32,000 nt of DNA from Sinorhizobium meliloti (GTDB lineage: Bacteria; Pseudomonadota; Alphaproteobacteria; Rhizobiales; Rhizobiaceae): positions 1,440,001 to 1,472,000 of the forward strand of contig NZ_JAGIOS010000002.1 of NCBI RefSeq assembly GCF_017876815.1. The letters are read 5' to 3'. A program made the position numbers and the translations under genes. The stretch's first letter is position 1; each line of letters opens with the position of its first letter. This document shows, piece by piece, positions 3,433 to 25,007 of this stretch. The notes under the pieces are model-generated. The model had not been told where the DNA came from. It did no database searches and worked only from the letters and a program-made list of their open reading frames with translations.

Positions 3433-3470
3433 AAAGCCGTGCCTCCCCGCGCCGGGGCGTTGATGATCGA

Positions 3471-3719
3471 TCAGTTCTGCTTGCGCTTGACCACGGCATC
3501 GATAAGGCTGCCGAGGTTCTTGAAACCTTGCACCTCAGCCGTGCTGAAGCGGACTGCGAGCTCCTGCTCGATCAGAACCATCAGTCTGACATTGGACAGG
3601 CTGTCCCATTGCGGAACGTCGCGGGCCGTCGTCTCCAGGGTGATCGGGCCGTCGTATTCATCGAACAGCTCACGGATCACGTCTGCGACTTGGGATAGAT
3701 AAAGTTGATGGTCAGACAT
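3471..3719 (-). CDS. acyl carrier protein (phosphopantetheine-binding)
   Basis: 82 aa and acidic, with the phosphopantetheine attachment motif QWDSLSNVRL. It lies 38 nt upstream of the FkbH-like gene on the same strand. Confidence 0.85.
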   Translation of the reverse strand: MSDHQLYLSQVADVIRELFDEYDGPITLETTARDVPQWDSLSNVRLMVLIEQELAVRFSTAEVQGFKNLGSLIDAVVKRKQN

Positions 3720-3780
3720 TTGTTCAACCTTGGTTTGGCGGCAGTTTTCAGGCCGTCGACAGCGCTTTGCGGTGCGCGAT

Positions 3781-5010: not shown

Positions 5011-5013
5011 GGC

Positions 5014-6582: not shown

Positions 6583-6719
6583 ATCAAACCCAACCAAAAT
6601 ATCAAATTTGGTCCGAAGCCACTTATCTGAGGCTACGAATCCTACATATGATTTAATTCGTCTGTGTCTTGCGCTACCAACGCAGCTCGCTACGGAGCCT
6701 GAATAGCAATAAATTTTCT

Positions 6720-6741
6720 GGCGGCCATATTTGAGGCCGCC
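6720..6741 (-). terminator. GC hairpin GGCGGCC-N8-GGCCGCC, weak candidate terminator between the VOC gene and the MBOAT cassette
   Basis: Perfect 7-bp inverted repeat. On the - strand it is followed by AGAAAATTTATT, an interrupted T tract. It sits in an AT-rich intergenic region about 220 nt downstream of the VOC gene stop. Confidence 0.3.
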
Positions 6742-6962
6742 GAACAATTAAGAGACAACTATAGGTTACGCACTGAACCACGAGGGTTTCGGCAGAGCCT
6801 TCTATCGCAGCTAAAATCAGGGGTAAAAAAGCACGCATTTAACGAGATGTAAATAGGACAGTAATGCCTTCGGCTATGTGACGGCGACTTAAATCAAAGT
6901 TCAAACCTATGGCGGCTTGACGAAAATGCGTCGGCACCGCTCTCCTGAAGCTGGTGGTCCTT

Positions 6963-11769: not shown

Positions 11770-12797
11770 CGGCTTGCCTCCACATTGCGCGCCGTCGTCG
11801 TCTCACGGGATTGTGTTGGGCCGCGCTCGTGCACCCCATAGCGGCGGGCACGGATGCGCCGGTCGATAATCTGGCGGATGCGGCCGTCGAGGAGCAGGAC
11901 CGAGAGCAGGATCGCGCCTGCAATGAAGTCATTCCAATAGGCCGGGATCTTCAAGAAAACGAGGGCACTGTCTATCGAAGTGATAAAGATAACGGCGGTG
12001 AAGACGCCAGCGACCGAACCGGTGCCTCCGAGAAGGCTCACGCCTCCTAGCACATTGACGGCGATGGCCTTCAGTTCGATGCCGTTACCGGCCTGATTTG
12101 GGATGAAGCCGATCTGGGCGGCGAAGACGAGGCCGGCGAGGGCGGCGCAGACGCCCGTTGCAACGAAAGCGGAAAACTGCACCAGCTTAACCGGTACACC
12201 GAGATGGTGGGCAGCCGCGCGGTTATCGCCGACTGCGTAGAAATTGCGGCCGAAGCGCGTCCTTCGCAGTACGATCCAGGCGAGCGCAACAAGTGCCAGC
12301 ACAACAATCGTGAGGACGGAGAAGCCGAAGCCGAGATTGGCGGCGAGCGCCTTCAGACCCTGCGGCAGGTCCTCGATCCAGCGCCCGCCCGTGAGGACGA
12401 GCATGATGCCGCGATAAAGTCCAAGCGTGCCAAGGGTGGCGACGATGGATGGAATGCCGAGATAGGCAACCATCAGACCGTTGAAGGCCCCGGCGACAGC
12501 ACCGGTTGCAAGGCAGAAGGCGATGGCGAGCGGCAGGCTCACGCCGGCTGTGAGCGAAAGGCCGAGCACCGCGGCGCTGAGGCCAAGCACCGAACCGCTC
12601 GACACATCGATATTGCGCGTCAGGATGACCATCATAGTCCCGAGCGAGATCAGCATCAGGACGAGGCTGTTGGAGACAACCACCGAGGCAGTGGCGCCGG
12701 ACAGATAGCCGGGCGCGGCCGTGCCGATCGCGGCGTAGGCGACGGCAAGCACTAGGATGAGCGTTGCGACGCGATTGCGGGAAAAGAGATCAAGCAT
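11766..12797 (-). CDS. lsrC: AI-2 ABC transporter permease LsrC
   Basis: Start re-set to the ATG at 12797 (MLDLFSRNRVATL...), which overlaps the lsrA stop (ATGCTTGA). LTRNIDVSSGSV, IVATLGTLGLYRGIMLVLTGGRWIE, FYAVGDN and QIGFIPNQAGNG match LsrC. The upstream 152 codons of the track ORF lie inside lsrA in another frame. Confidence 0.9.
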   Translation of the reverse strand: MLDLFSRNRVATLILVLAVAYAAIGTAAPGYLSGATASVVVSNSLVLMLISLGTMMVILTRNIDVSSGSVLGLSAAVLGLSLTAGVSLPLAIAFCLATGAVAGAFNGLMVAYLGIPSIVATLGTLGLYRGIMLVLTGGRWIEDLPQGLKALAANLGFGFSVLTIVVLALVALAWIVLRRTRFGRNFYAVGDNRAAAHHLGVPVKLVQFSAFVATGVCAALAGLVFAAQIGFIPNQAGNGIELKAIAVNVLGGVSLLGGTGSVAGVFTAVIFITSIDSALVFLKIPAYWNDFIAGAILLSVLLLDGRIRQIIDRRIRARRYGVHERGPTQSRETTTARNVEASR

Positions 12798-14307
12798 GGC
12801 GGCCCTCCGAGGCGCCGAAGGCGAGGCGGGCGATGGCGTCAACCGAGATCTGGTCCGTGAGTTTGCCGCCAGACTGGCCGAAGGCCATGATCTCGACCCG
12901 GTCGGCAAGCTGTTCGATCTCGTCGAAGTCGGATGAAATGAGGATGATGGCGACGCCGTCGGCGGCAAGCCGGCGGATGACGTCGTAGAGGTCGTTGCGT
13001 GCCGCCACGTCCACGCCGCGCGTGGGCTCGTCGAGAATGAGCACCTTGGGCCGAGCGGAAAGGCATTTGGCGAGCAGCACCTTCTGCTGGTTGCCACCCG
13101 AAAGACCGCGCGCCTCCTGGTCGGCGCCGGTGCACTTGATGCCCATGCTCGCGCGGAACCCATCGAAGACCTTACGCTCGGCGCCGGGCCGCAGAAAGAA
13201 GGGCAGGCGGTGCACCAGGTAGGACGAAACGTTCCAGGAAAGCGGTGCTTCAAGGAAAAGGCCGTGCTGCTGGCGGTCTTCAGGCAGGTAGACGAGGCCG
13301 AGGTCGATGCATATGCGCGGTGAGCGCTTCTTCAGTTCCGCGCCATCAAAGACGACGCTGCCCCCCATCTGCGGCCGAAGGCCGAAGAGCGTTTCGGCGA
13401 ACTCCGTGCGTCCGGCGCCCACGACCCCGGCAAGGCCGAGGATTTCGCCGGCCCGCACGTCGAGGCTGATATTGCGGAACCCTTCGCCGCTGAGGTCGCG
13501 CACGCTGAGACGCGGCTTGCCGATCTGCGAAACCTTGCGGCACACACGCTTCTTGTCGGCATCATCCGCGATCTGCACACGGCTCATCGCGTCGATAATC
13601 ACGGCGTCGCTGTAGCTGTCGAGCGGCCCGCTAAGCACGATCACACCGTCGCGCAGTACGCTGATTGTGCCGCAGATCTCGCGAATCTCGCGCAGCTTGT
13701 GCGAGATGAAGAAGATGCCGACACCCTGACTCTGGAGCTTGCGCACGCGCTGAAAGAGGGCGCTGGTCTCGAAGGGGGTTAGCGCCGAAGTCGGTTCGTC
13801 GAGTATCAGCACGCGCGCGTCACGTACGAGACCGCGCAGGATTTCGACAATCTGCCGCTCGGCGATTTCAAGGGCGGCGGCCTGCACGTCGAGGTCGAGC
13901 GAGACTGAGAGCTCGGCGACGAGTTGCTCGACGCGCGGCCTTAGCGCGCGGGGAGAGGCTGCAAGGCCAAGGCAGATGTTTTCCAGAACGCTCTGGTTGG
14001 GCAGGATATGCGCCTCTTGCGGCACCAGGTAAAGCCCGAGTTTCTGCGCGAGCGCCGGCGATGCATGGGTGAGGGCGCGGCCGTTGATCTCGATGGCGCC
14101 GGCATTAGACGCAATGACGCCCGACATGATTTTCATGAGGCTCGACTTGCCAGCGCCGTTGCCGCCGAGAAGCGCATGCACCTCTCCCGCGTGCAAAACT
14201 AGGGAAACACCTTTTAGCACCGGAACGGCACCGTAGGACTTCCAGACGTCCGTCAGCTTCGCGACCCTCCCGGCCACCGGGCTCCCAGCCATTCCGCACC
14301 TGTTCAT
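12790..14307 (-). CDS. lsrA: AI-2 ABC transporter ATP-binding protein LsrA (duplicated ATPase domains)
   Basis: 505 aa with Walker A GGNGAGKSS, signature LSGGNQQK, Walker B LILDEPT twice, and sugar-type tandem ABC architecture. First gene of the lsrACDB string. The true start may be the second ATG at 14292, which follows AGGTG. Confidence 0.9.
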   Translation of the reverse strand: MNRCGMAGSPVAGRVAKLTDVWKSYGAVPVLKGVSLVLHAGEVHALLGGNGAGKSSLMKIMSGVIASNAGAIEINGRALTHASPALAQKLGLYLVPQEAHILPNQSVLENICLGLAASPRALRPRVEQLVAELSVSLDLDVQAAALEIAERQIVEILRGLVRDARVLILDEPTSALTPFETSALFQRVRKLQSQGVGIFFISHKLREIREICGTISVLRDGVIVLSGPLDSYSDAVIIDAMSRVQIADDADKKRVCRKVSQIGKPRLSVRDLSGEGFRNISLDVRAGEILGLAGVVGAGRTEFAETLFGLRPQMGGSVVFDGAELKKRSPRICIDLGLVYLPEDRQQHGLFLEAPLSWNVSSYLVHRLPFFLRPGAERKVFDGFRASMGIKCTGADQEARGLSGGNQQKVLLAKCLSARPKVLILDEPTRGVDVAARNDLYDVIRRLAADGVAIILISSDFDEIEQLADRVEIMAFGQSGGKLTDQISVDAIARLAFGASEGRHA

Positions 14308-14313
14308 ATGTAA

Positions 14314-14370
14314 TTCATGAAAGTCATGTGATCACATAGCTCAATCGTCGTCAATATGCCCGTCACGTGA
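14314..14370. promoter_or_regulatory. cluster of perfect palindromes in the lsrA-lsrR divergent intergenic region (candidate LsrR operators/promoters)
   Basis: TTCATGAA (14314-14321), ATGTGATCACAT (14326-14337) and TCACGTGA (14363-14370) lie within the 225-nt AT-richer spacer between divergent lsrA and lsrR. Confidence 0.4.
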
Positions 14371-14532
14371 TGAACGACTATAGGAAGCCAGTGCATCGCT
14401 CGAAGCTCGGATTAGCCGCGCAAAATCAACGGATTGGAACTGGGAAGAATATTTCGCAGGCCTAACGCGTTGACGGATCAAAAGTTTTATTGGTATTCAA
14501 ATGATCAGAAATCGACCGAGGGAGCCGCTTGC

Positions 14533-15480
14533 ATGGCGTCGGACAACGGAGAATGGAGTTATGCCGACACGGACGAGGAGATCCTCACCCGTATCGCTTG
14601 GTATTACTACAACGACGGGCTGACGCAGAACGAGATCGGCGAGAAACTCAACATGTCGCGCATCAAGGTGTCGCGTCTTTTGGAGAGCGGCCGACGCTCC
14701 GGCATTATTCAGGTGCGTATCAACTCGAGATATCAGGGCTGCCTGGCGCTCGAGCGGCAGATCAAGGAGCGCTACGGGCTGTTGGAAGCCTACGTGGTGC
14801 CGCAGCTTCCCGATCAGGATCCGAGTGATCGGCTGGGTCAGGCGGCCGCGCAATTTCTCATGCAACGGCTTCAGCCGGACGACCTTCTGGCGGTCGGTTG
14901 GGGCGCGACCGTGAGCAACACGATCCAGCGGCTCGGCCATGTCGCCAACGAGCGCAATATTGGCCTAGTCAGCCTGACCGGCGGCGTCGGCACTTATGTC
15001 GACGGCATGCGAACGGCCAACTGGGGCAGCAGCGTTCATCTCGTACCGGCGCCGCTCGTCGTGCGCGACCCGGATGTCGCACGCAACCTCTCTTCCGAAC
15101 CCGCCGTCGCCAACTTGCTCGAAATGGCGCTCAACGCGAGTTACCAGCTCGTTGGCATCGGTGAACTTTCGGCCACCTCCACTGTCGTGCGTTCCGGCTA
15201 TGTCAGCCCCGATGAGGTGGAGCCGTTGCGCCGCAAGGGCGCCGTCGGCGACATCCTCTGCCAGTTCTACAACGAATGCGGAGAGCCACTCGAGTTGCCG
15301 CTGCACGATCGAGTGATCGGCGTGAAGCTCGCGGCGCTGTCGCGCGCGGAAAAAGTCGTGGCGGCGGCGGGTGGCATCCATAAGGTACAGGCCATCCATG
15401 CAGCGCTTTGCGGAAAGGTCGTCGGCATCCTCATAACCGACGAGACGACCGCGAGCCGCCTCATCGAGCTCGAGGACTGA
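14533..15480 (+). CDS. lsrR: SorC/DeoR-type transcriptional repressor LsrR
   Basis: Start re-set to the ATG at 14533, preceded by GAGGGAG. N-terminal HTH (IAWYYYNDGLTQNEIGEKLNMSRIKVSRLLESGRRSGIIQVRI) plus a sugar-phosphate-binding SorC domain. Divergent from lsrA and followed by lsrK, as in E. coli lsrRK. Confidence 0.9.
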   Translation: MASDNGEWSYADTDEEILTRIAWYYYNDGLTQNEIGEKLNMSRIKVSRLLESGRRSGIIQVRINSRYQGCLALERQIKERYGLLEAYVVPQLPDQDPSDRLGQAAAQFLMQRLQPDDLLAVGWGATVSNTIQRLGHVANERNIGLVSLTGGVGTYVDGMRTANWGSSVHLVPAPLVVRDPDVARNLSSEPAVANLLEMALNASYQLVGIGELSATSTVVRSGYVSPDEVEPLRRKGAVGDILCQFYNECGEPLELPLHDRVIGVKLAALSRAEKVVAAAGGIHKVQAIHAALCGKVVGILITDETTASRLIELED

Positions 15481-15484
15481 GACC

Positions 15485-17047
15485 ATGAAGACTTCCTATA
15501 TGCTGGCCGTCGATGCCGGCACGGGCAGCGGCCGCGCGGTGATCTTCGACGAAAACGGCAACCAGATCGCCAGCGCCCAGCACGAATGGTGGCACCGGGC
15601 CGATCCGCGCTTTCCGGGCTCGATGGACTTCGATGTGGAGGGCAACTGGTCGCTGCTGTCACGCGCCATTCGCCAGGCGATCGCCGAATCCCGCATTGCA
15701 CCCGCCGAGATCCGTGCAGTCAGTGCCACCAGCATGCGTGAGGCGATCGTCGCCTATGACCGCAGCGGTCGGGAAATCTGGGCCTGCGCCAACGTCGACA
15801 GTCGCGCCGTGAGCGAGGTGCGCGACCTGAAGCGCGATTTTGCCGATCTGGAGCGGACGCTTTATACTGAGAGCGGGCAGACTTTCGCGCTCGGCACCCT
15901 GCCGCGCCTGCTCTGGCTGAAGCGCAACCTGCCGGACGTCTATGCTCGCATCCACAGGATCAGCATGCTGTCAGATTGGGTTCTGGCGCGTCTCTCCGGC
16001 GTCATCGCGAGCGATCCTTCCAATGCCGGCACGACCGGTCTCTACAGCCTAACGAAACGCAATTGGATGCCTGAGGCGCTGAGCAAGGCCGGCATGCGCG
16101 ACGATATCTTCCCGGAAAGCGTCGAGCCGGGCACGGTGATCGGCCGGGTCACCGAAAGGGCGGCTAGCGAGACGGGCATTGCCACGGGCACACCCGTTGT
16201 CATGGGAGGCGGCGACTGCCAGAGCGGGGCAGCGGCAGTCGGTGTCGTGAATGAAGGTGACTGCGCCGTGCTCGGGGGGACCTTCTGGCAGCAGGTGGTG
16301 AATGTCGGCCCGTCCGTGTCCGATCCGTCTATGGACCTGCGCATCAATCCGCATGTCGTCAACGGCCTAAACCAGGCCGAGGCGATAAGCTTCTTCGTCG
16401 GCATGGTAATGCGTTGGTTCCGCGACAGTTTCGGCGCGGAAGAGGTCGCGGCGGCCGGGCCCGGCGGCGATGCCTACAGGCTCCTCGAGGAGAAAGCAGC
16501 CGGGGTGCCGGTGGGCGCTTACGGCATCATTCCGGTCTTCTCCGACGTCATGCACTACGGCAACTGGTATCACGCCGCGCCTTCGCTTCTGAACCTTTCT
16601 ATCGACCCGGAAAAATCGGGCAAGGCCGCGATCTTTCGCGCCCTTCAGGAGAATGCGGCGATTGTCGCGGCCCGCAACCTTTCGGCTATCTTCAAGCTTT
16701 CCGGCAAAACGCCGGATAAGATCGTCTTTGCGGCCGGCGCGTCGAAATCAGCCCACTGGTCGCAGATCCTTGCGGATGCCACCGGCCTTCCGGTCGTAAC
16801 GCCCGTGGTCAAGGAGGCGACGGCGCTCGGCTGCGCCGCAGCGGCGGCAATCGGGATCGGCCTACGCCGCAACTTCGTCGAGGCGGCGGCGAGCTGGGTG
16901 CGCTGGGACAAGCGTTTCGAGCCGAATTTCGACCACAAGGTTATCTACGAGGCGGCGGGCGAGCGCTGGGCACGCGCCTACGCGCTGCAGCGACAGCTCG
17001 TGGACGAGGGCGTCACCACGGCCATGTGGAAGGCGCCAGGTCTCTGA
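15485..17047 (+). CDS. lsrK: autoinducer-2 kinase LsrK (FGGY carbohydrate kinase family)
   Basis: 520 aa. LAVDAGTGSGRAVIFDENGNQIA, PGSMDFD, WACANVDSRA, DPSNAGTTGL, VLGGTFWQQVVN, AAPSLLNLSIDP and the C-terminal LWKAPGL-type end match LsrK along the whole length. Confidence 0.92.
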   Translation: MKTSYMLAVDAGTGSGRAVIFDENGNQIASAQHEWWHRADPRFPGSMDFDVEGNWSLLSRAIRQAIAESRIAPAEIRAVSATSMREAIVAYDRSGREIWACANVDSRAVSEVRDLKRDFADLERTLYTESGQTFALGTLPRLLWLKRNLPDVYARIHRISMLSDWVLARLSGVIASDPSNAGTTGLYSLTKRNWMPEALSKAGMRDDIFPESVEPGTVIGRVTERAASETGIATGTPVVMGGGDCQSGAAAVGVVNEGDCAVLGGTFWQQVVNVGPSVSDPSMDLRINPHVVNGLNQAEAISFFVGMVMRWFRDSFGAEEVAAAGPGGDAYRLLEEKAAGVPVGAYGIIPVFSDVMHYGNWYHAAPSLLNLSIDPEKSGKAAIFRALQENAAIVAARNLSAIFKLSGKTPDKIVFAAGASKSAHWSQILADATGLPVVTPVVKEATALGCAAAAAIGIGLRRNFVEAAASWVRWDKRFEPNFDHKVIYEAAGERWARAYALQRQLVDEGVTTAMWKAPGL

Positions 17048-17087
17048 GTTTTATAGATCCGTCAATCAACATAGCAGGAATTAAGAC

Positions 17088-17402
17088 ATGCTCATCCAGA
17101 TGGTTAGCATCAACGTCAAGCAAGGCCACGCCGCAGATTTTCTGGAGGCGTTCCGCATAAACTACGAAGGCACGCGCCAGGAGCCCGGTAATCTGCGCTT
17201 CGACGTCCTGCGCAATCCGGACGACGACCACAGCTTCGTCATCTATGAAGTCTTCAAGTCGCCTGAGGCGCTCGACGCGCACCGCAAGACCGAACACTAC
17301 CAGGAATGCGTGCGCCGGATCGACCCGATCCTCGCCGGCCCACGGACCAAGACCTTCTATAATGTCGAGATGGCCGATTTTCTCGCCGCGGGCCAAGCCT
17401 AG
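17088..17402 (+). CDS. lsrG: phospho-DPD isomerase LsrG (ABM monooxygenase-fold)
   Basis: 104 aa. INVKQGHAADFLEAFRINYEGTRQEPGNLRFDVLRNPDD..FVIYEVFKSPEALDAHRKTEHYQECV aligns with E. coli LsrG (EGNLRFDVLQDP, FYIYEAYKDE, HKTTPHYKTCV). Confidence 0.88.
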   Translation: MLIQMVSINVKQGHAADFLEAFRINYEGTRQEPGNLRFDVLRNPDDDHSFVIYEVFKSPEALDAHRKTEHYQECVRRIDPILAGPRTKTFYNVEMADFLAAGQA

Positions 17403-17749
17403 CAGGTTTGGAATACGGCAGAGCTCCTCGGACGGTGGACACTACTTCGTTCAGGGGTTGAGCGACCCTTCTGCACTGATTAAATTCGATAAGCCGCTGG
17501 ACGAGCTTCGGGCTGCGCTGGCAGAGTTTGACTGGGAGACAGAGCCGTTCACAACCCTGGGCGGTGGGAATTGCCGCGATGCTGCGGCGTTCGCGTCACC
17601 CCAACGCCGCCGCTGTTCCTGACCAAGAATTTCGGCTCGCATCCCATACCTTGCCTAAAACACGTCGGTAACGACGTCGTCAATGACGGCCATCAACGCG
17701 CTATCCGGCAGGCGGTGCCAATCGGGCGGTTAGCCTGAAAAGGGGGCAT

Positions 17750-18169
17750 TCAACCTGAAACCGTGTCAGCGAAGCATGATGCGATCATCTTGTTTGCTCC
17801 TAAGTCCCTTGCCCATTTTGCGATCTCGGGTTCGTCACTCTTCTCAGCGATGCCGCCCCACACTTCCTTCAGCACGGGGTTTCCTGACGAAGAGTCGAAG
17901 AAAAAATAGCCTGGGTCAGCAACCGGGACATCGGCATATACAATCGTCCATGTGCCGGCCTGCATAAAATTGATGATGCTGATCTTGGACGGTTGGACCT
18001 TCTGATCAAGGCCATTGGCAACAAGCCTCGAGTAGTCGGCTTTGCGTGTGGCGCTGAGCTTCGTATCAACGCCTTTGCAGGGATCAGCCGCCAATGCGGC
18101 ATGTTGTGGTAGTTGGAGGATGACAGCAGCTAAACCGAATGCGAAAAGTTGTTTTAGAAACGTGGACAT
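17750..18169 (-). CDS. secreted hypothetical protein
   Basis: Start re-set to the ATG at 18169, giving a Sec signal peptide MSTFLKQLFAFGLAAVILQLPQHAALA/ADP. I recognise no family. Confidence 0.55.
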   Translation of the reverse strand: MSTFLKQLFAFGLAAVILQLPQHAALAADPCKGVDTKLSATRKADYSRLVANGLDQKVQPSKISIINFMQAGTWTIVYADVPVADPGYFFFDSSSGNPVLKEVWGGIAEKSDEPEIAKWARDLGANKMIASCFADTVSG

Positions 18170-18231
18170 CAGGGCAGTACTCGCTCCAGAAAGCTTCTGG
18201 TAGATAACCACACATCGTGTTCGCGGACAAA

Positions 18232-18290
18232 TGGTAAGCTACCGCTTAAACCACGAAAAGTCCGGGCTCGGTTCCCGGGCTTGCAACCAA
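18232..18290 (+). repeat. tRNA 3'-half-like fragment, degenerate copy 1 (putative att scar)
   Basis: Ends in CCGGG-CTCGGTT-CCCGG GCTTGCA A CCA, i.e. a T-arm-like hairpin, an acceptor 3' strand and CCA. There is no matching 5' acceptor strand and the T-loop is non-canonical. It is a direct repeat of 18640-18697. Confidence 0.55.
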
Positions 18291-18312
18291 CATACAGAGC
18301 GACCGCCCCGTT

Positions 18313-18450
18313 TCATCTTAGGGGCGTCTGAGGAACCACTTCTGGCACATCCGGTGGCACCTCACTTTCTGGGACGAACCCAAGGATGCTCACCACGAGA
18401 GCGATGAGAACGCAGATGAGTACGAGGAAGGCAACACCGGTTCTGTCCAT
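18313..18450 (-). CDS. small hydrophobic ORF (45 aa, one TM helix), hypothetical
   Basis: Below the ORF-track cut-off. The ATG at 18450 gives MDRTGVAFLVLICVLIALVVSILGFVPESEVPPDVPEVVPQTPLR. The Shine-Dalgarno sequence is weak. It lies between the two tRNA-like repeats. Confidence 0.3.
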   Translation of the reverse strand: MDRTGVAFLVLICVLIALVVSILGFVPESEVPPDVPEVVPQTPLR

Positions 18451-18639
18451 TCATTATTAGCAATTCCGAATGTGATGAATTCGAGGCAAAGACTAAGAGG
18501 CTCGCATCCTGTCGCCGCGACCAGACCCGCGCCCGGGGGGTACCGGGCAAATCAAAGGAGAAGAAGGTCGATTAATCTAAATAATATTCGTCAAAGTGGA
18601 CTGATCCGAAGCAATCAACTCTGACGCAAGCAGGGCAAC

Positions 18640-18697
18640 TGGTAGGCCGAGGCCTATAACCTCGAAGAACGGGTTCGATTCCCGGGCCTGCAACCAA
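18640..18697 (+). repeat. tRNA 3'-half-like fragment, copy 2 (anticodon-arm-like hairpin to CCA end; not an intact tRNA)
   Basis: CGAGG-CCTATAA-CCTCG hairpin, short variable region, canonical T-arm GGGTTCGATTCCC, then GCCTGCA-A-CCA. The best 5' partner (GCAGGGC at 18630) would give only about 67 nt with no D-stem. The last 19 nt differ from copy 1 at one position. Confidence 0.6.
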
Positions 18698-18720
18698 ATT
18701 CGAGACGATGGCTATCTGCG

Positions 18721-18912
18721 TCAGTCTTCGTCCCAGAGCATTTCCATTATCTCGTCAGGGGATTCCTTAACCTGAAACGTCGCGCAATCTGCGTTTTTGG
18801 GAGCGAAGGTGACGAGAGTGGTGCGTCGTTGACCTTCAACCCGCTGGAAGTGCGTCACAGCGTCCATGTTGACGAAAATTGGTCCGTTGTTGTCGTGTAG
18901 TTCGAGCCACAT
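18721..18912 (-). CDS. small hypothetical protein (63 aa)
   Basis: ATG at 18912 preceded by GAGAGGA. MWLELHDNNGPIFVNMDAVTHFQRVEGQRRTTLVTFAPKNADCATFQVKESPDEIMEMLWDED. The upstream part of the track ORF is unlikely to be coding. Confidence 0.45.
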   Translation of the reverse strand: MWLELHDNNGPIFVNMDAVTHFQRVEGQRRTTLVTFAPKNADCATFQVKESPDEIMEMLWDED

Positions 18913-19150
18913 GGTTTGTGTCCTCTCGACAATTCGTCGGCTCGCGGAAGTATAGCACAAGGGTGAGTGAAATGAGCCCGTACCGCGTCGAATACGATTC
19001 CGGCCCTGAGGGCATGGAGGGGATGAAGCCGTCAAGAACGAGTGGGCGGACAAAGGCTATCGCCTCGATCAGGTGGCCCGAGATCGACTTAGGAGTGGCT
19101 TCTGATGTTCTCCTTAAGCACGTTCACTTGCTAACTCCTTCCAACGTTAA

Positions 19151-19603
19151 TCCATATCAGTCCCGAGGCACGAGACGTTCGCGCAGGAACTCTTCAAAGG
19201 CAAGTCAGCCGATGAGGCATATGCGTCCGCGGGGTATAAGCCGGACAGGGCAACGCTTCCCGCCTGACAGCAAATGACGGCATCAAAGACCGCGTGGCCG
19301 AAATCCAAGGTAAGGGCGCTCTCAAGGCGGAAGCGACTGTCGAGCGTGTTTTGAAAGAGCTCTCCCGTATCGGCTTCTCCGATCTTGGCCGCGTGTTCGA
19401 TGCGAACGGCAGGCTGCTTCGACCTGAAGAGCGGGATGTCAGCCGCCGCGGTCGCTTCGGTCGAAGTGGTGACCCGCAACATCGGCGACGGTGAGGTCGA
19501 GCACGTCCACAAATCTAAGGTCTGGGACATAAATAGCGCCTTGGAGACCCTCGCCAAGCACCTCGATTGTTCATCGAGCGTGTCGAGCACTCTCGGAGCA
19601 TGA
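19151..19603 (+). pseudogene. phage terminase small subunit remnant (no start, at least two frameshifts)
   Basis: Frame-hopping translation gives RHETFAQELFKGKSADEAYASAGYKPDR / NASRLTANDGIKDRVAEIQGKGALKAEATVERVLKELSRIGFSDLGRVFDANGRLLRPEE / DVSAAAVASVEVVTRNIGDGEVEHVHKSKVWDINSALETLAKHL. This is a typical TerS HTH followed by a coiled region. The frame opens directly after a TAA and has no start codon. Confidence 0.6.
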
Positions 19604-20070
19604 GCCTCAATGTCTCGCCAGAGGATGCCGAACTGTGGCGCATGCAGGTGGCTCGATTAACGGAGAAACAGCGAGAGGCTAATCGCCTTCTCGCCGGCCC
19701 GGCGCGCAACATCATGCCCCGCGGCGGGTCTCGGTCGGGAAAGACGTTCGTTCTTTGTCGGGCGATGCTCCAGCGAGCGATAAATGCTCCGGGTTCGCGG
19801 CATGTCATAGTCAGATTTCGATTCAACCACGCGAAGACGTCGGTCTGGTCCGATACGCTGCCCAAAGCCTGGCCCTCTGCTTCCCGTCGGTTCGGGTGAG
19901 GGTTTGACAAGACCGACTTCTATGTCGAGCTGCCGAACGGATCGCAGATCTGGATAGCCGGCCTCGATGATAAAGAGCGCGTCGAGAAGATCCTGGGACA
20001 GGAATACGCCACTCTCTATTTCAACGAGAGCAGCCAAATCCCCTGGGCATCCCGCCGTCCGGTGGTGTAG
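19600..20070 (+). pseudogene. phage terminase large subunit, N-terminal fragment (frameshift near 19898, truncated near 20070)
   Basis: MSLNVSPEDAELWR...LLAGPARNIMPRGGSRSGKTF (Walker A)...RHVIVRFRFNHAKTSVW, then after a frameshift DKTDFYVELPNGSQIWIAGLDDKERVEKILGQEYATLYFNESSQIPW. The nuclease half is absent. Confidence 0.7.
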
Positions 20071-20079
20071 CTATGCCGA

Positions 20080-20241
20080 TCAGAACACGCCCAGAGAGCT
20101 GAGCAACGAAACTGCGCCAACGATCAGAACCACGATCTGAGCCATCTGCTTCATCGTAGAGTCGATCGGAAGTTTCTGCACGAGATAGAGCAAAACGATG
20201 ACGAATAGGATTGTGACGAGGATGCTGATTGCGGCGGACAT
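20080..20241 (-). CDS. small two-TM membrane protein (53 aa)
   Basis: Below the ORF-track cut-off. MSAAISILVTILFVIVLLYLVQKLPIDSTMKQMAQIVVLIVGAVSLLSSLGVF. The layout (TM, LP.D loop, TM) resembles widespread small membrane proteins of about 50 aa. GAAGGA lies 10 nt upstream of the ATG. Confidence 0.5.
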   Translation of the reverse strand: MSAAISILVTILFVIVLLYLVQKLPIDSTMKQMAQIVVLIVGAVSLLSSLGVF

Positions 20242-20322
20242 GTCCCCCAGGTCCTTCAACTAAGCGCCTTGCGGCATGAAGGCGTAAATATGGCTGAGCT
20301 CTCGAAAAGGAAGGGAGGACGG

Positions 20323-20520
20323 ATGGCGAACCCAATCTATGCCCGTCTGCAGGCGACGGCGCAGCGCCTCATCGCAAAATATGGGCCCGGCGTGGCCCGT
20401 CGCTGGGGGCAGGCGCCAGGCCTCTCACCGCCCCGTCCGCCACCGGGACGGCTGCGCGCGGCGTTAACACAATGCGGTTGCGGTCTCTACTCGCCTATTC
20501 GGGCTAAACCCAAAGCCACA
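20323..20520 (+). pseudogene. phage-type gene 5' fragment (MANPIYARLQATAQRLIAKYG...)
   Basis: ATG at 20323 after GGGAGGA. The first ~21 residues resemble N-termini that I associate with small phage virion proteins. After that the reading frame becomes Pro/Arg-rich and non-protein-like although it stays open to 20862. Confidence 0.3.
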
Positions 20521-21006
20521 ATCAGAGACCGTGCAGTCTCTGCAGCGTCGTTTGAAATTCTCAATTCGCGCGTATGTGAATTCGAACGCTCAGAAGCTGG
20601 GCCTCTTCTTTCGTCGAGAGAGAAGGGCCTTTCTGCGTCTAAGAGCAAAAGACCCGCGATCCGGGCCGGGGTCACATTCCATGGCGTCCCGTCGCGCCTG
20701 TGGGTAGGCCGTCGGATGCTTTTTTGTTCCGGCAGCCCGAAATCGTCTCTGTCGCGCATCAACCGAAATCCTCCGGTGCCCATTCGCAAGGCCAGTACTC
20801 CGGTGCGGCTAAGACGGTGGAGCCTCAGAGCCGTGGAGAAGGGGACGATTTTTACAACCTAAGCCCATCACTCACCCAAGGGGCGAGCGACGGCGGCCGC
20901 TCGGGGTGATAACTCTAATATGGCAAAGGTTCGCGCGGCGGCCTGCCTAAGACCCTTGCCATCGTCGACAAAGTCCAATCAGCAGGCATTCAGGAGAATG
21001 CTGCAA

Positions 21007-21456
21007 TCACTCGGGCTGCGGCAGGGGGATCAATGTTTTCGTCTTGCTCTTGGTCGGCTTTTCGCCCGGAACATGGGACATGGTCTTCGTGCGGCTCTGC
21101 AGTCCGTCGTCCGTAACCTTGGTCTTGGTCTGCGACTTGCTGAATGTTCCTTTGTCCATGGCCTGAGCCTTTGACTGCCCCTGCAATTGGGAGGGATTGT
21201 CGTTTATTTTCGTCTGGCTCTTTGCCTTTCCTTCCGAGGTTGCTGCGCTTCCGCCTACGCCAATCGAGGACGTCGTTCCGTCGTCGGTCCTGCATGTGCC
21301 TGCCGTTCCGATCGTGCTGGCCGAGGTGCCACCGGCCGCGGCGCTTCCGCCAGATCCAACCGTTCCCGCCGCATCGCACTCTTGAGCCTCCGCTGGCACG
21401 AACGCAGCCGTTGCGGACGCGACGACGAAAAATGCAAGTATCGTTCTTCGAAGCAT
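21007..21456 (-). CDS. secreted low-complexity protein (Gly/Ser/Thr-rich N-half, Lys/Thr/Gln-rich C-half)
   Basis: Start re-set to the ATG at 21456, 5 nt after AAAGGAG. Signal peptide MLRRTILAFFVVASATAAFVPAEA/QE, then CDAAGTVGSGGSAAAGGTSASTIGTAGTC and KSQTK-type repeats. Confidence 0.6.
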   Translation of the reverse strand: MLRRTILAFFVVASATAAFVPAEAQECDAAGTVGSGGSAAAGGTSASTIGTAGTCRTDDGTTSSIGVGGSAATSEGKAKSQTKINDNPSQLQGQSKAQAMDKGTFSKSQTKTKVTDDGLQSRTKTMSHVPGEKPTKSKTKTLIPLPQPE

Positions 21457-21467
21457 AACAGCTCCTT

Positions 21468-21845
21468 TCATTTCTTCGGCTTGATGATTGCGCAGGTCCC
21501 ATCCGAACGGCGCGTGATGGTCGTGCCGTCGGGGCGGGTCACGGTAGCGGTCGCAAAGCTCTCTCCACCGGAGGACCCACTCGTCACTGAGGATCCGGCA
21601 CTGCTCGTGGCAGAGCCACCGCTTGCCGAGGTGCCGCCGCCGACCGTCGTGGACGAGGATACGCTGCCAGACCCTACAGTGACTGACGACGAAACGCGGC
21701 TCCCGTCCGACTGTTCTGGTTCGATGACCACGCACGTCGAGCCGTCATCGAGCTTAATCTCTTTCGCTGCGGCATGGTCAGGGGCAGCCATAGCAGCCGC
21801 GAACAGCGCCGTGATAACCGGGACTAGAAATGAACTGGAGGTCAT
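21468..21845 (-). CDS. secreted Ser/Gly/Thr-rich low-complexity protein (125 aa)
   Basis: ATG at 21845 after GGAGGAGG. Signal peptide MTSSSFLVPVITALFAAAMAAPDHAAA. The motifs DDGSTCVVIEP and SDGTCAIIKP bracket a Ser/Gly/Thr tract. Confidence 0.65.
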   Translation of the reverse strand: MTSSSFLVPVITALFAAAMAAPDHAAAKEIKLDDGSTCVVIEPEQSDGSRVSSSVTVGSGSVSSSTTVGGGTSASGGSATSSAGSSVTSGSSGGESFATATVTRPDGTTITRRSDGTCAIIKPKK

Positions 21846-21909
21846 CGGGCCTCCTCCTTCTTGAAAACGCTGGCTTCGGAAGGGTCCTCCGAAGCCAGCC
21901 GATTTGATA

Positions 21910-22449
21910 TCAGCAGGACGGTCTGTTGCCCTTGGAGCCGTCCTTCTTGGCGAGGCCAGGAGGACAATTCTTGTTGCTCTCATCGTCCTGGGCGGCGTCG
22001 CGGGCGCTGTTTTCATCGCCTTGGACACTGCCGGTGGTCTCATCCGATGTTCCGCCACCTGATCCAGCGGCTGAGCCACCGGTTCCAACGGAGCTGCTGG
22101 TGCTTCCACCGCCTGCGGAAGAGCCGCCGGTGCCAAGGGTCGAAGCGGAGCCGGCGCTACCCGACCCGGCGGCTGATCCACCCGTTCCCACGGAGCTGCT
22201 TGACGTACCGCCGCCGGCCGAAGATCCGCCCGTTCCCAGTGTCGATGCAGAGCCGGACTGGCAATCGCTGGTGTTCGGATCGCAACCGCCACCAGCCGAG
22301 CTTCCGCCCGTTCCGACGGTGCTGCTTGAGGTCCCACCGCCGGCGCTGGTGCCGCCGGTGCCAATCGTTGTGCTCGATTGCGCGAACGCGCCCAGCGTGG
22401 TGCCCGCGAGAAGGCCTGCCGCGAGGGCCGTCCTGATGAAATACCGCAT
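21910..22449 (-). CDS. secreted Gly/Ser/Thr-rich repeat protein (179 aa)
   Basis: ATG at 22449 after AGGAAAGGA. Signal peptide MRYFIRTALAAGLLAGTTLGAFA/QSS. Three copies of (S/T)xGTGGSSAGGGTSSSxVGTGGSxAGxG, and Cys pairs CDPNTSDC and C..C at the C-terminus. Confidence 0.65.
   Translation of the reverse strand: MRYFIRTALAAGLLAGTTLGAFAQSSTTIGTGGTSAGGGTSSSTVGTGGSSAGGGCDPNTSDCQSGSASTLGTGGSSAGGGTSSSSVGTGGSAAGSGSAGSASTLGTGGSSAGGGSTSSSVGTGGSAAGSGGGTSDETTGSVQGDENSARDAAQDDESNKNCPPGLAKKDGSKGNRPSC
22060..22385 (-). repeat. in-frame tandem DNA repeats inside the 21910-22449 gene
   Basis: GCGGCTGAGCCACCGGTTCC... at 22067 recurs as GCGGCTGATCCACCCGTTCC... at 22169, a period of 102 bp (34 aa). A third, more diverged copy follows with a 126-bp spacing caused by the CDPNTSDCQSGSA insertion. 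Confidence 0.7.
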
Positions 22450-23162
22450 TGGAGTTCCTTTCCTCACGTTAATGTCCTTGTGGCTGCAACCTGCCTACCA
22501 ACCCAAACCAGCATGACGTGTTCCGGGCTGGGACTTCGGACCGAAGGGGTCCCGGCGCAAAGTCTGAAGGCCTACTCGGACCTTCGCCCGTTCGGCGCGC
22601 GCATAGGTCTGAGCGGCGATTCCGAATGGAACCGCGCGGCCGGATCGCTCGTTTTCTGCGCTCGGGCTTCGCGCAGCCCTGCTCACCAAATTGATTGTGA
22701 TGGCACTTCGGGGGCCGCAGCTCTGTTTGTGTCTCACGACATTCGCGATATTGTGGAAAGGGATGACGGCGTCTTCTCATCATCGTCGTCTGGCCACCAC
22801 CCCCATCCATTCATGAAGGAGCGCTTCTTTCGCCTGCTGACCATCGAGGCGGAGTAATAGAAGCTGCAGCAGCTGGTGCTCCGAAATTCTCCGACGGCAG
22901 GTAAGCGGCGCTGTCCTTCCGGCAATCTCAGATCAGCTTTTGCACTTTGAGCCCGTCGGCCGTGATCTGTCTCGTCGGCCGGTCAACAGCTGACCCCGCG
23001 TGTGCTTCCTGGCCTTTTCGTCATCCAGGACGGTTCCTATCCTTCATGTTTGATCATGGAGGAAAGCATCGCGACGATCCGATCACGAGCTCGTTTCAGA
23101 AAAGTAGCACGAGGTTGCATACCTAGGCGCGCGGGGGAAGTGACGCGGAAGAAGGCCCTTGA

Positions 23163-23420
23163 AGCTTCCGTGGGGCGGGGTCTGTGCGGAAAGGCGAACG
23201 AGGGACCGGAATTGCAGCAAGCCTTTTGCATGACGTTACAGAGCATGCACGAGATCACGGAGTTCTGCAGTTGGAGCTTGCGGTGAATGCAGAAAATTCG
23301 GCAGCGATGCGATTCTATCAACGCCACGGTTTCGTAGAGGTTGGCCGCATTCCAAACGGCTTCCTGGGGCACGGTACCAAGAACGACGAGTTAATCATGG
23401 TCCTGTGCTTGGAGAGATAA
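23163..23420 (+). pseudogene. GNAT family N-acetyltransferase, C-terminal fragment
   Basis: VRKGERGTGIAASLLHDVTEHARDHGVLQLELAVNAENSAAMRFYQRHGFVEVGRI is the acetyl-CoA-binding motif A plus motif B. An in-frame TGA at 23160 and non-GNAT sequence upstream mean the N-terminal half is missing. Confidence 0.6.
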
Positions 23421-23443
23421 CCATTTCCGTATCGCTTCCACTC

Positions 23444-23462
23444 CGCCCCATTTAGTGGGGCG
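23444..23462 (+). terminator. hairpin CGCCCCA-TTTAG-TGGGGCG after the GNAT fragment
   Basis: Perfect 7-bp stem 24 nt after the stop codon. No T-tract follows, so this is a weak call. Confidence 0.25.
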
Positions 23463-23938
23463 CTCCGGCGACGTTTACCCTCCGAGAAAAAATGGGCACA
23501 ACAAGCGCCGGCCGGCCGACGGCCCGACCCGTTCGACCGGGGCTTGACCGGTCAAAAGGCTAGCCGCAGGAGGTTCAGCATGGCGCCGGCAAGCCGCTCC
23601 ACGGACTCGAGGATGGATCTCTCGCACTCCTCGCCAAGCCGACGGCCGCTGCCCCGCTAACTCAATGGTTGGCGCAGCTGCGATTTCTTTTTGAGAGGGC
23701 GAACGGTGCGTACAAGGATGCCTAATTGGATATGACTGGATGGGCGGCCTAAGCGCGCGTTGCAGAAACCGCGGTCACATTGGCCCATTTTGCCACTACA
23801 GCCGCAGCGCCGGCTGTAAGCAAGGCGCTCGCAGGAGTGAATTGGTTAGGTTAGCAATTAAGTGACCTCAGCGTGCTGCCAACGTGCTCGGACTTCGAAG
23901 AGCGGTGATCCGTTTGGCCTTGGACAGTCCAGCGGAGC

Positions 23939-24157
23939 CTACTTCTTGAAACGAACACCCACGCCGCCACCATTTTCCGGGATGAACTCAATTCCTGCCT
24001 TGGCGAACGCCGCGACGATGCTTGCAAGATTATTGACGATGGGAACGTGAGCTCCCCGTTCAAAATCCGCAATGGTCTGGCGAGACACGCTGGCTGCTTT
24101 GGCCAACTCTGCTTGGCTCCAACCCAACATAGCTCGCGCCCCACGGCACTGCTCCAT
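23939..24157 (-). CDS. XRE-family helix-turn-helix transcriptional regulator (72 aa)
   Basis: Start re-set to the ATG at 24157. MEQCRGARAMLGWSQAELAKAASVSRQTIADFERGAHVP...AGIEFIPENGGGVGVRFKK is a common alphaproteobacterial HTH_3 protein pattern. Confidence 0.8.
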   Translation of the reverse strand: MEQCRGARAMLGWSQAELAKAASVSRQTIADFERGAHVPIVNNLASIVAAFAKAGIEFIPENGGGVGVRFKK

Positions 24158-24230
24158 CGTAAGAAGATCGTTACTCAAGGCAAACTTTCTGATTGACTTC
24201 TGACATTTTGTAGGAAAAATAACCGGCGAC

Positions 24231-24262
24231 GATCGAACAGGTGCGCGAACACCTGCTCGATC
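24231..24262. promoter_or_regulatory. 13-bp imperfect inverted repeat in the divergent XRE / hypothetical-gene promoter region (candidate operator)
   Basis: GATCGAACAGGTG-CGCGAA-CACCTGCTCGATC with 12 of 13 positions complementary. It sits 74 nt upstream of the XRE start and 34 nt upstream of the 24296 ATG. Confidence 0.4.
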
Positions 24263-24295
24263 TGACCACAACCCAAGCTGTAAGGAGCTCGGATC

Positions 24296-24844
24296 ATGGC
24301 TGATTCCGACAATAGCAGAACTTTGTCTACGGTCACCCGGGGAGATTTCTATTCCTTCGCGGCGGCGTCATTACCCACATCTCAAGAGCTTGCCAGGGCG
24401 ACGCGCCTACCTTCGGATGCGTGCAATGACGATCCCGCGCTCGTGGTCTGCAAACAGTGGTGCAACGCCCGGGAACATCTGAGCGCGCCACGTTTGCGCC
24501 AGCAGCGGCACGAAAGCTCGCTCTTTTCGGCTGTTTTGCCCGCACCGCTTGAGCAATCCGCGGGTTTGCGAGCTTACGAAAAGGCGCTCGAAGCTGAAGA
24601 TCGTGCATCCGCCGCGGAGGACCAGGCCGCGGAAGCCCTATGGCGGACACCAGCGCGATCGGCTGCAGGCGCAACGGCCAAGCTCCACGCCCTCGGCACG
24701 AAGTGGCAACCATCTTCCACAAGCGAAGAAGAACCCTGGCCACAAATCCGCTCCGTCATCGCCGACCTCCTGAAGATCGACACCGGCTCTGTTGCGAGCC
24801 GCCTGTCTATGCCCGAACGCCAATCCGAGCTTCAAGGCGATTGA
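24296..24844 (+). CDS. hypothetical protein (182 aa), divergent from the XRE gene
   Basis: ATG 9 nt after AAGGAG. Ala/Glu-rich and predicted soluble. I recognise no family. The antisense ORF 24333-24743 is rejected as Arg/Pro-rich. Confidence 0.55.
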   Translation: MADSDNSRTLSTVTRGDFYSFAAASLPTSQELARATRLPSDACNDDPALVVCKQWCNAREHLSAPRLRQQRHESSLFSAVLPAPLEQSAGLRAYEKALEAEDRASAAEDQAAEALWRTPARSAAGATAKLHALGTKWQPSSTSEEEPWPQIRSVIADLLKIDTGSVASRLSMPERQSELQGD

Positions 24845-25007
24845 ATGGGAATGGTTCACCAGGACACGTGATCCCCGGCGCGCCGCCGACCTGACAAGCT
24901 ATGCGCACCGCGCCTTTGCATGCATTTCGCCGTGGGAGCACCGCGTTCGGGAACTGCTTCCAATGCGGCGTTCCGACTCTACCAAAAACTAAAACAAGGA
25001 ACTTCAA

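Follow-up and report, generated by a model that had tools for sequence, protein, structure and literature searches.

Three consecutive genes on the Sinorhizobium meliloti replicon pSymB, here called A, B and C, encode exported proteins made largely of glycine, serine and threonine, and each is annotated as 'hypothetical protein' in strain RCAM1115. The locus raises the question of whether frames of such simple composition are genuine genes and, if so, what their products could do together. It was described in an earlier note on the window (the whole stretch of 32,000 nucleotides analysed here), which was made from the sequence without database searches.

Gene calls and conservation of the trio

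The three genes all lie on the minus strand and all start with ATG:

21007-21456, minus strand: gene C, 149-aa precursor
21468-21845, minus strand: gene B, 125-aa precursor
21910-22449, minus strand: gene A, 179-aa precursor

Recomputation of the coordinates, the lengths and the gaps (64 nt between A and B, 11 nt between B and C) gave the values of the earlier note. Each gene is preceded, as described there, by a good Shine-Dalgarno sequence (GAGGAAAGGA for A, AAGGAGGAGG for B and AAGGAG for C). The Gly/Ser/Thr-rich composition is also borne out, with Gly, Ser, Thr and Ala together making up 73% of mature A, 59% of mature B and 51% of mature C. The note had left room for the opposite-strand or alternative frames being the expressed ones. 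Nucleotide differences relative to S. medicae at first, second and third codon positions number 8/8/56 in gene A, 11/9/43 in gene B and 12/9/52 in gene C; because these substitutions are mostly at third positions, the three minus-strand frames are real, selected genes. The same codon-position bias rules out the long opposite-strand open reading frames as true genes; they are mirror artefacts.

The older S. meliloti annotation of the locus is faulty, as gene B appears in strains 1021 and 2011 as a 'membrane-anchored protein' with an over-long 203-aa start. Literature searches found no mention of SMb21029-SMb21034 and nothing relevant on SMb21035-40, and an Rfam scan of positions 17000-25000 identified no RNA family. 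The 'new ORFs' SMb_ORF_4 to SMb_ORF_9 map elsewhere on pSymB.

Gene order and orientation are identical in all 84 related loci examined, mostly from Rhizobiaceae with some from other Hyphomicrobiales, and the A-B-C arrangement is also kept in distant metagenomic relatives. At least 305 homologues were found for C and 40 for B, and virtually all of the S. meliloti pSymB replicons found have the operon. The flanks of the trio are unrelated between genera. Thus the earlier description as operon-like is strengthened by a constant order and by frames conserved in relatives, and the survey of co-travel proposed at the time finds A, B and C together at every locus (84/84). Judged by this conservation, the trio is a predicted single, self-contained transcription unit, mainly of Rhizobiaceae. 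A functional tie to the adjoining AI-2/lsr-like genes or ABC transporter was rejected because other genera do not retain these neighbours.

Export, cysteines and predicted folds

The Sec signal peptides assigned earlier to all three proteins pass a rule-based check for a hydrophobic core and an AxA-like site, with cleavage predicted between AFA and QSS in A, AAA and KE in B, and AEA and QEC in C. By a simple rule, signal peptides are found in 78 of 81 A, 64 of 82 B and 74 of 82 C orthologues. The paired cysteines are likewise as described (CDPNTSDC in A, DGSTC...DGTC in B and ECD...GTC in C), and A contains a second pair that the note had missed, in a C-terminal CPPG...C loop. Orthologues have 0, 2, 4 or 6 cysteines in A and 0, 2 or 4 in C, with very few odd counts, in keeping with pairs that come and go as units; B has exactly two in 74 of 82 orthologues, and its C38 and C118 are invariant. 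A Sec signal by itself indicates export as far as the periplasm; Sec alone does not carry proteins across the outer membrane. By both signal peptides and paired cysteines, the trio fits predicted Sec-exported, disulfide-bonded periplasmic proteins. Lipoproteins were rejected, as there is no lipobox and the cysteine of C lies 2-3 residues past the predicted cleavage site.

After its signal peptide, A has some seven repeats, each of 16 residues and of the type S-S-S-T-(V/I/L)-G-T-G-G-S-S-A-G-G-G, together with an internal C-x6-C loop, an acidic linker and the C-terminal CPPG...C loop. The number of units ranges from 4 to 10 among A orthologues, 74 of 81 of which terminate in a C(P/A)PG...C loop. 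The AlphaFold2 model of A is of low confidence (pLDDT 56) and has short strands about every 8 residues.

The repeat module is common to A and C (hhalign probability 99.1%). Mature C begins with three repeat strands of the A type, of which two lie between the cysteines of the pair, and continues into a conserved Lys/Gln/Thr/Ser domain, GTFSKSxTKT...SRTxTMSHVPGEKP. This domain, formerly described as a Lys/Thr/Gln-rich tail, is in fact the most conserved and strand-forming part of the protein. The AlphaFold2 model of C (pLDDT 88.7, pTM 0.74) shows eight strands, each 10-14 residues long, that follow one another as a meander; C is thus predicted to be an all-beta eight-strand meander and may form either a barrel or an open sheet. 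In the last five strands, small and hydroxyl residues occupy one face and Lys and Gln the other. Mature C has a single aromatic residue and ends in ...LPQPE. An outer-membrane 8-stranded barrel was considered for C and rejected, because the surface is hydrophilic and Lys/Gln-rich and has neither an aromatic girdle nor a C-terminal aromatic residue.

The earlier note had suggested disordered or beta-solenoid-like material. Disorder fails for C, given its confident all-beta model, while a beta-solenoid may still apply to A only, on the basis of the low-confidence model.

Mature B comprises a strand motif, KLDDGSTCVVIE, a Ser/Thr/Gly-rich middle and then TRPDGTTITRRSDGTCAIIKP. Homology of B to A or C was rejected for want of profile similarity, and B is, by profile comparison, assigned to a family separate from that of A and C. 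The trio proteins are predicted to be small, hydrophilic beta-sheet proteins almost free of aromatic residues, with Gly/Ser/Thr/Ala-rich strands that each contain one hydrophobic residue. A low-complexity-looking sequence can encode regular, conserved beta-structure.

The trio could not previously be assigned to a described family, and Pfam, NCBIfam, PADLOC, PHROGs and PDB sequences indeed yielded no credible match. Searches of Pfam, NCBIfam, PADLOC and PHROGs with the three proteins and with the B and C alignments returned only noise (Tcp10_C, a CopK overlap with the signal peptide, and New_glue), and Pfam and NCBIfam searches over every member of the B and C alignments gave nothing above noise. 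PADLOC and PHROGs contained no matching defence or phage family. PDB sequence profiles gave no match for C and a single one for B, which is not credible (E 0.81). Foldseek comparison of the C model with PDB and BFVD found no match at E <= 0.001; one exported product of the operon has a confidently predicted fold without a solved relative. Calcium-binding beta-rolls of the RTX type (GGxGxDxUx, Pfam HemolysinCabind) were rejected, as there is no Pfam match at E up to 1 and the repeats are without Asp.

Promoter motif and intercistronic hairpin

Two further features of the minus strand bear on the expression of the trio:

22500..22524, minus strand: EcfG/RpoE2-type promoter motif GGAACACGTCATGCTGGTTTGGGTT, starting 75 nt upstream of the gene A ATG
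21869..21899, minus strand: GC-rich intercistronic hairpin directly after the A stop codon, with a 14-bp stem and a 3-nt loop, followed by GTTTTC

Upstream of A, at a distance of 75-119 nt and mostly at -75 to -95, 70 of 82 loci (73 of 82 after start-codon corrections) carry a motif of the form GGAAC-N15-18-NGTT, and 4 further loci have GCAAC in place of GGAAC; the background frequency of the motif is 0.0104 per 110 nt. The predicted -10 element is GGTT in Sinorhizobium, which departs from CGTT, the commonest form. The motif upstream of A is identical in strain 1021 and satisfies the strict S. meliloti RpoE2 rule, GGAAC-N18-19-TT (PMC3738161). The window holds four such motifs on both strands together, which is about the chance expectation by our own estimate, so the case for the promoter rests on its conservation across genomes. 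A simple scan found no sigma-70 promoter.

Promoter conservation makes the trio a predicted member of the EcfG/RpoE2 (ECF15) general stress regulon. It has the same motif, GGAAC-N16-17-(C/G)GTT, as the regulons of S. meliloti RpoE2 and R. etli EcfG1/RpoE4, but is absent from the portions of the regulon lists that were available. The accessible RpoE2-overexpression array lists (PMC6180224 supplement) contain no probe set for the trio, though B is annotated in strain 1021, and the chip may lack usable probes for the region; in the same portion of that supplement SMb21028, which lies downstream on the same strand, is up 1.9-fold on RpoE2 overexpression (log fold change 0.94). The trio promoter sequence does not occur in the accessible part of the transcription-start-site and RpoE2 supplementary tables of PMC3616915. 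According to the accessible part of that study, 150 of 202 RpoE2-dependent genes are without predicted function (PMC3616915).

The hairpin in the A-B spacer has a free energy of -30.2 kcal/mol in the window, and a hairpin follows A in all 74 analysable loci, with medians of -26.6 kcal/mol, a 12-bp uninterrupted stem and a z-score of -3.6 relative to shuffled sequences. The stem sequence varies from genus to genus, and most of the T-tracts are weak. In 73 of 82 loci B and C are separated by 9-13 nt, and a Shine-Dalgarno-like site precedes C in 80 of 82; in the window, AAGGAG lies inside the 11-nt gap. No canonical terminator was found after C by a simple scan.

Proposed role and alternatives

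Most genes of the alphaproteobacterial general stress response are without known function, and its protective mechanism, which matters for how well rhizobial inoculants survive in dry soil and on seed, is largely open. The explanation that we favour, with moderate confidence, is that the trio is a general-stress-induced operon of periplasmic or envelope beta-proteins, with A as the major product, B and C as coupled partners and a putative protective function. Transcription of the trio would be driven from an EcfG-type promoter, in S. meliloti by RpoE2, when the general stress response is active, for instance in stationary phase or under heat, osmotic stress or desiccation. The strong hairpin after A probably terminates or stabilises a share of the transcripts, so that the repeat protein A would be made in excess, whereas B and C, translated jointly, would reach levels similar to each other and lower than that of A. 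All three would be exported via Sec, lose their signal peptides and have their disulfides closed in the periplasm. From the predicted regulon membership and the composition, we propose that under stress they work jointly in the periplasm or envelope in a structural or protective capacity, A as the bulk component and B and C as partners or organisers. The operon is a compact, testable and self-contained effector candidate and is apparently stress-controlled.

None of the roles proposed in the earlier note (matrix or adhesin component, O-glycosylated surface protein, bacteriocin-like peptide) gains support, as the trio is not accompanied by genes for secretion, assembly, immunity or glycosylation. 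The EcfG/RpoE2-type promoter, which the note had missed, argues that the trio probably serves as a module for envelope stress and not as a toxin or adhesin. An extracellular matrix, fibre or adhesin, in which A would be a secreted polymerising repeat subunit and B and C a nucleator or anchor like CsgA/CsgB, is unlikely. It would suit a repeat protein with a variable number of units, a hairpin after A suggestive of a major subunit with minor partners, small-residue sheet faces that could stack, and weak fold-search matches to elongated beta structures such as phage tail fibres. However, outer-membrane secretion and assembly genes are lacking alongside the trio, whose flanks vary between genera, Sec alone is insufficient to cross the outer membrane, there is no Curlin repeat or other adhesin domain, and the promoter is of the stress rather than the biofilm-regulator type. 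Curli (CsgA/CsgB) and other functional amyloids do resemble the trio in combining a beta-rich repeat major subunit with minor partners, and the small-residue sheets of the trio could stack; the curli repeat is Gln/Asn-rich whereas that of the trio is Gly/Ser/Thr-rich, CsgG/E/F-type secretion genes are missing and the regulation is different. Membership in these families was rejected, as there is no Pfam match and the neighbours are unrelated and vary between genera.

A reading of C, and perhaps of B, as a soluble ligand-binding beta-barrel of the periplasm, akin to avidins, lipocalins or YceI and charged with carrying a small molecule under stress, with A as an unrelated accessory, is quite doubtful. 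The modelled C would share its eight antiparallel strands in meander, or nearest-neighbour, order with avidins and OmpX/OmpA-type barrels, and weak fold matches include avidins and small barrels (4ggr, 3szi, 2ooj), but every one is insignificant (best E 0.075, TM 0.30 or lower). The putative inner face consists of Gly, Ala, Ser and Thr with very few hydrophobic or aromatic residues, unlike known ligand pockets, and strict co-inheritance with A and B would be left unexplained. Heavy O-glycosylation of the envelope proteins, with the Ser/Thr tracts as glycan sites and the glycans carrying the function, is improbable. Very high Ser and Thr content is compatible with it, and PMT-family and GT2 glycosyltransferase genes lie upstream of the trio in a single locus, that of Chthonobacter, but this neighbourhood is not conserved in other loci, and the conserved Ser and Thr alternate along the strands of a confidently predicted fold, as would suit a structural role. 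We know of no general O-glycosylation system in Rhizobiaceae. A glycine-rich bacteriocin or microcin-like antagonist is very improbable: the products are small, Gly-rich, exported and cysteine-containing, but immunity gene, dedicated exporter, double-glycine leader and conserved neighbours are all missing, the signal peptides are of the ordinary Sec type, and neither PADLOC nor PHROGs offers a match. Nor does an antagonist fit the presence of the operon in nearly every S. meliloti pSymB, or the 60-70% identity of C across genera, which points to purifying rather than diversifying selection.

The favoured stress operon could have a more specific form, to which we give only a small chance. The trio would co-assemble, in the periplasm or at the cell surface, into a regular beta-sheet material of silk-like or polar-zipper type, deployed by the general stress response to make the envelope more stable against drying and osmotic shock, with A as the bulk subunit, B and C as stoichiometric organisers, and C attached through its Lys/Gln face to anionic polymers of the envelope. 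If true, bacteria would have a class of protective protein material not described before, with a new fold.

Known stress proteins offer partial parallels to the favoured stress operon. Hydrophilins have more than 6% Gly and a mean hydrophilicity index above 1, and are typically disordered. With these and LEA-like proteins the trio shares high Gly (14-28%), hydrophilicity, a stress association and a plausible link to desiccation, but its proteins are predicted to be exported and disulfide-bonded. Strict hydrophilins were rejected: at GRAVY values of only -0.29 to -0.79 the hydrophilicity of that class is not reached, and C is predicted to be folded. In E. coli, RpoS controls small periplasmic stress proteins such as YbgS and OsmY, whose part in the envelope is poorly understood. 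They are small, Sec-exported, hydrophilic and controlled by a general-stress sigma factor, as is predicted of the trio, and YbgS is also of low complexity with a cysteine pair. There is no sequence or domain relationship, as OsmY has BON domains and the trio no Pfam domain, and the trio differs from both in being a fixed three-gene module with a repeat protein.

Gene models and conservation of the trio

The window belongs to pSymB of S. meliloti, with 99.9% identity to plasmid p_2 of strain RCAM1115 and 98.8% identity to positions 650140-652628 of pSymB from strain 1021. The three Gly/Ser/Thr-rich genes, each annotated as 'hypothetical protein' in RCAM1115, are arranged as follows.

21910-22449, minus strand: gene A, 179 aa, ATG start
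21468-21845, minus strand: gene B, 125 aa, ATG start
21007-21456, minus strand: gene C, 149 aa, ATG start

Gaps of 64 nt (A-B) and 11 nt (B-C) separate the genes, which have Shine-Dalgarno sites GAGGAAAGGA (A), AAGGAGGAGG (B) and AAGGAG (C). An earlier note, made from the sequence alone, had described an operon-like trio of secreted, cysteine-capped low-complexity proteins, and re-checking confirmed its gene coordinates, their lengths and spacing, and its account of composition and cysteine motifs. In strain 1021, A and B are identical to the window proteins and C is 99.3% identical. Relative to S. medicae, differences at codon positions 1/2/3 number 8/8/56 in A, 11/9/43 in B and 12/9/52 in C, and gap lengths are multiples of three. 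The note had allowed that opposite-strand or alternative frames might be the expressed ones; the third-position bias indicates that the frames are conserved in relatives and that the opposite strand is not the coding one. Judged by this substitution pattern, A, B and C are real genes whose three frames are under purifying selection. Long opposite-strand ORFs were rejected as genes, being mirror images of the biased composition.

In strains 1021 and 2011, gene B is annotated as a 203-aa 'hypothetical membrane-anchored protein' (window 21468-22079, minus strand), an over-extended model whose start falls within gene A in a different frame. The 125-aa start is favoured by the length of orthologues in other genera (113-133 aa), by the strong Shine-Dalgarno site and by a hairpin in the A-B spacer.

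Homology searches found about 38 relatives of A (a search saturated by low-complexity words), 40 of B and more than 305 of C. B and C are well kept across genera, C being 60-70% identical between Sinorhizobium, Rhizobium and Neorhizobium. When one genome was scanned per species, 155 of 185,579 species genomes contained a C relative; the best 80 loci were retained and four added (including Chelatococcus and Chthonobacter), giving 84. The best 80 are mostly from Rhizobium, Neorhizobium, Pseudorhizobium, Sinorhizobium and Pararhizobium, with others from Pseudaminobacter, Mesorhizobium liriopis, Tianweitania, Jiella (three copies), Lutibaculum, a Beijerinckiaceae MAG and an Enhydrobacter MAG. A and B lie directly upstream of C, with order and orientation kept, in 84 of 84 loci. 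The three genes thus travel together, while genes on either side bear no relation from one genus to another. Among 1.84 billion cluster representatives, searched exhaustively with a profile, only 104 matched. Distant metagenomic members are preceded by a B-like gene of the same two-cysteine design, itself preceded by an A-like gene wherever the contig reaches far enough upstream. Small and narrow, the family lacks a described relative.

Some genomes carry the whole A-B-C module in two or three copies (L numbers denote related loci in the cross-genome comparison).

Jiella sp. M17.18: L079, L080, L085
Rhizobium populisoli: L036, L040
R. mesosinicum: L050, L054
R. halophilum: L021, L037

Sequence anatomy and predicted structure

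Protein A has a signal peptide predicted to end between AFA and QSS, followed by some seven units of 16 residues that conform to S-S-S-T-(V/I/L)-G-T-G-G-S-S-A-G-G-G and each contain a single hydrophobic residue. Beyond these lie a C-x6-C loop, then an acidic linker and, at the C-terminus, a CPPG...C loop, a second Cys pair additional to the motifs of the earlier note. Unit number ranges from 4 to 10 among A orthologues, 74 of 81 of which end in a C(P/A)PG...C loop. Protein B has two invariant Cys within two alike motifs, KLDDGTTCTVIE and RRSDGTCDITKP, bracketing a Ser/Thr/Gly-rich middle. Protein C opens with three A-type units, the Cys pair round two of them being present or absent together, and continues into a conserved domain (DGKAxSxTKxNxNPNxLxAQSKAQAxDxGTFSKSxTKTxVxGDELxSRTRTMSHVPGEKPVKSTT). 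Profile comparison relates A to C (probability 99.1%, E 8e-19) and places B in a separate family. None of the three matched a Pfam, NCBIfam or PDB family.

By a simple rule (hydrophobic core plus AxA-type site), signal peptides occur in 78/81 A, 64/82 B and 74/82 C orthologues, and cysteine counts across 82 loci are nearly always even. Both are as expected of proteins exported to an oxidising compartment.

An AlphaFold2 model of C, built with a 62-sequence alignment (pLDDT 88.7, pTM 0.74), consists of a signal helix and then eight strands, each 10-14 residues long and connected to the next by a tight turn, as in a meander. Across the last five, Ala/Ser/Thr/Gly and a single hydrophobic residue occupy one face, and Lys/Gln/Arg the other. 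C is confidently predicted to be an all-beta protein. The model matched no solved structure (best E 0.075, TM <=0.30) and none among predicted viral structures; its predicted fold has no counterpart among solved ones. For A the model has low confidence (pLDDT 56) and suggests short strands every ~eight residues; A is likely beta-rich.

Promoter, hairpin and candidate regulation

The following elements surround the trio.

22524-22500, minus strand: EcfG-type motif GGAACACGTCATGCTGGTTTGGGTT, beginning 75 nt upstream of the A start codon
22628-22653, plus strand: second EcfG-like motif GGAACCGCGCGGCCGGATCGCTCGTT, ~105 nt upstream of the trio promoter, in the opposite direction
21869-21899, A-B spacer: GC-rich hairpin directly after the A stop codon (14 bp, -30 kcal/mol), then GTTTTC
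20080-20259, minus strand: ORF of 59 aa encoding a membrane peptide with two helices, SMb21028 homologue, ~750 nt downstream of C

In 70 of 82 loci, or 73 once mis-called starts are corrected, GGAAC-N15-18-NGTT lies 75-119 nt upstream of A, in most cases at -75 to -95; the background elsewhere in the same loci is 0.0104 per 110 nt. Four further loci have a GCAAC variant; this replaces the GGAAC -35 box in the Jiella copies and the Enhydrobacter MAG. The bases around the two boxes are not conserved, so the motif constitutes a phylogenetic footprint. The strictly conserved site of RpoE2, the S. meliloti general-stress sigma factor, is GGAAC-N18-19-TT (PMC3738161), and for R. etli EcfG1 the motif reads GGAAC-N16-CGTT (PMC3892343). 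In sequence terms, the trio motif is the EcfG-type consensus; the -10 box in Sinorhizobium is GGTT, not CGTT, and the motif is not rare inside the window (four matches, both strands).

The RpoE2-overexpression lists examined from PMC6180224 hold no probe set of the trio, whose GC-rich repetitive genes may lack usable probes; they include SMb21028, downstream of the trio on the same strand, with a log fold change of 0.94 (up 1.9-fold). The window motif scan found no EcfG motif for the SMb21028-like ORF itself, so transcription may read through from the trio.

Of the 84 loci, 19 have such a divergent motif. Its place is fixed in Neorhizobium, ~184 nt upstream of A, where it precedes a 30-aa hydrophobic peptide ORF (~2730-2638, minus strand, in locus L011); the window copy is not followed by a clear ORF. 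A small RNA or peptide may be expressed from it.

A hairpin follows A in 74 of 74 analysable loci (medians: uninterrupted stem 12 bp, free energy -26.6 kcal/mol, z-score -3.6). Its sequence varies between genera and T-tracts are mostly weak. It would act as a partial terminator or 3'-end stabiliser, raising A over B and C. The B-C gap is 9-13 nt in 73 of 82 loci and a Shine-Dalgarno-like site lies <=16 nt upstream of C in 80 of 82, suggesting coupled translation.

Proposed role and neighbouring genes

We infer that the general stress response induces the trio unit, that A is produced in excess of B and C, and that all three reach the periplasm, become disulfide-bonded and act jointly as structural or protective envelope components under stress. 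The trio would then comprise stress-induced exported small proteins from undescribed families, and in this it behaves as do other effectors of the general stress response whose function is unknown. E. coli has RpoS-dependent small periplasmic proteins, which the trio resembles by analogy. With its function proposed on these grounds, the trio stands as a candidate effector of the general stress response of rhizobia, clean and open to testing.

An extracellular fibre or adhesin system is a less likely possibility; the trio has no adhesin domain and no co-inherited secretion or assembly genes. A ligand-binding small barrel agrees with the strand count of C but not with its residue pattern, and no fold match was significant. 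For O-glycoproteins, no conserved genetic support was seen. Ordinary Sec signals, strong conservation and the absence of immunity or export genes make bacteriocins, one suggestion of the earlier note, unlikely. The interpretation in that note is supported in part, for the operon, the signal peptides, the paired Cys and the lack of a described family. The trio does not show what defines curli, RTX repeats, outer-membrane barrels, strict-sense hydrophilins or bacteriocins.

Other features of the window are as follows.

23184-23420, plus strand: short ORF limited to the C-terminal portion of a GNAT acetyltransferase (195-nt CDS in the RCAM1115 annotation)
12790-17047: lsr/AI-2-like set of ABC ATPase, sugar-binding (SorC/LsrR-type) regulator and FGGY kinase
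5014-6747, minus strand: MBOAT-family membrane O-acyltransferase, within the 1546-6747 region

The GNAT fragment is probably a gene remnant, and no convincing gene lies between it and the trio. LsrG is annotated close to the lsr/AI-2-like set in RCAM1115; this neighbourhood is not kept beside the trio in other genera. The MBOAT gene adjoins two large ORFs (409 and 628 aa) without a Pfam match, and the 1546-6747 region (minus strand) may be a polysaccharide-acylation cluster.
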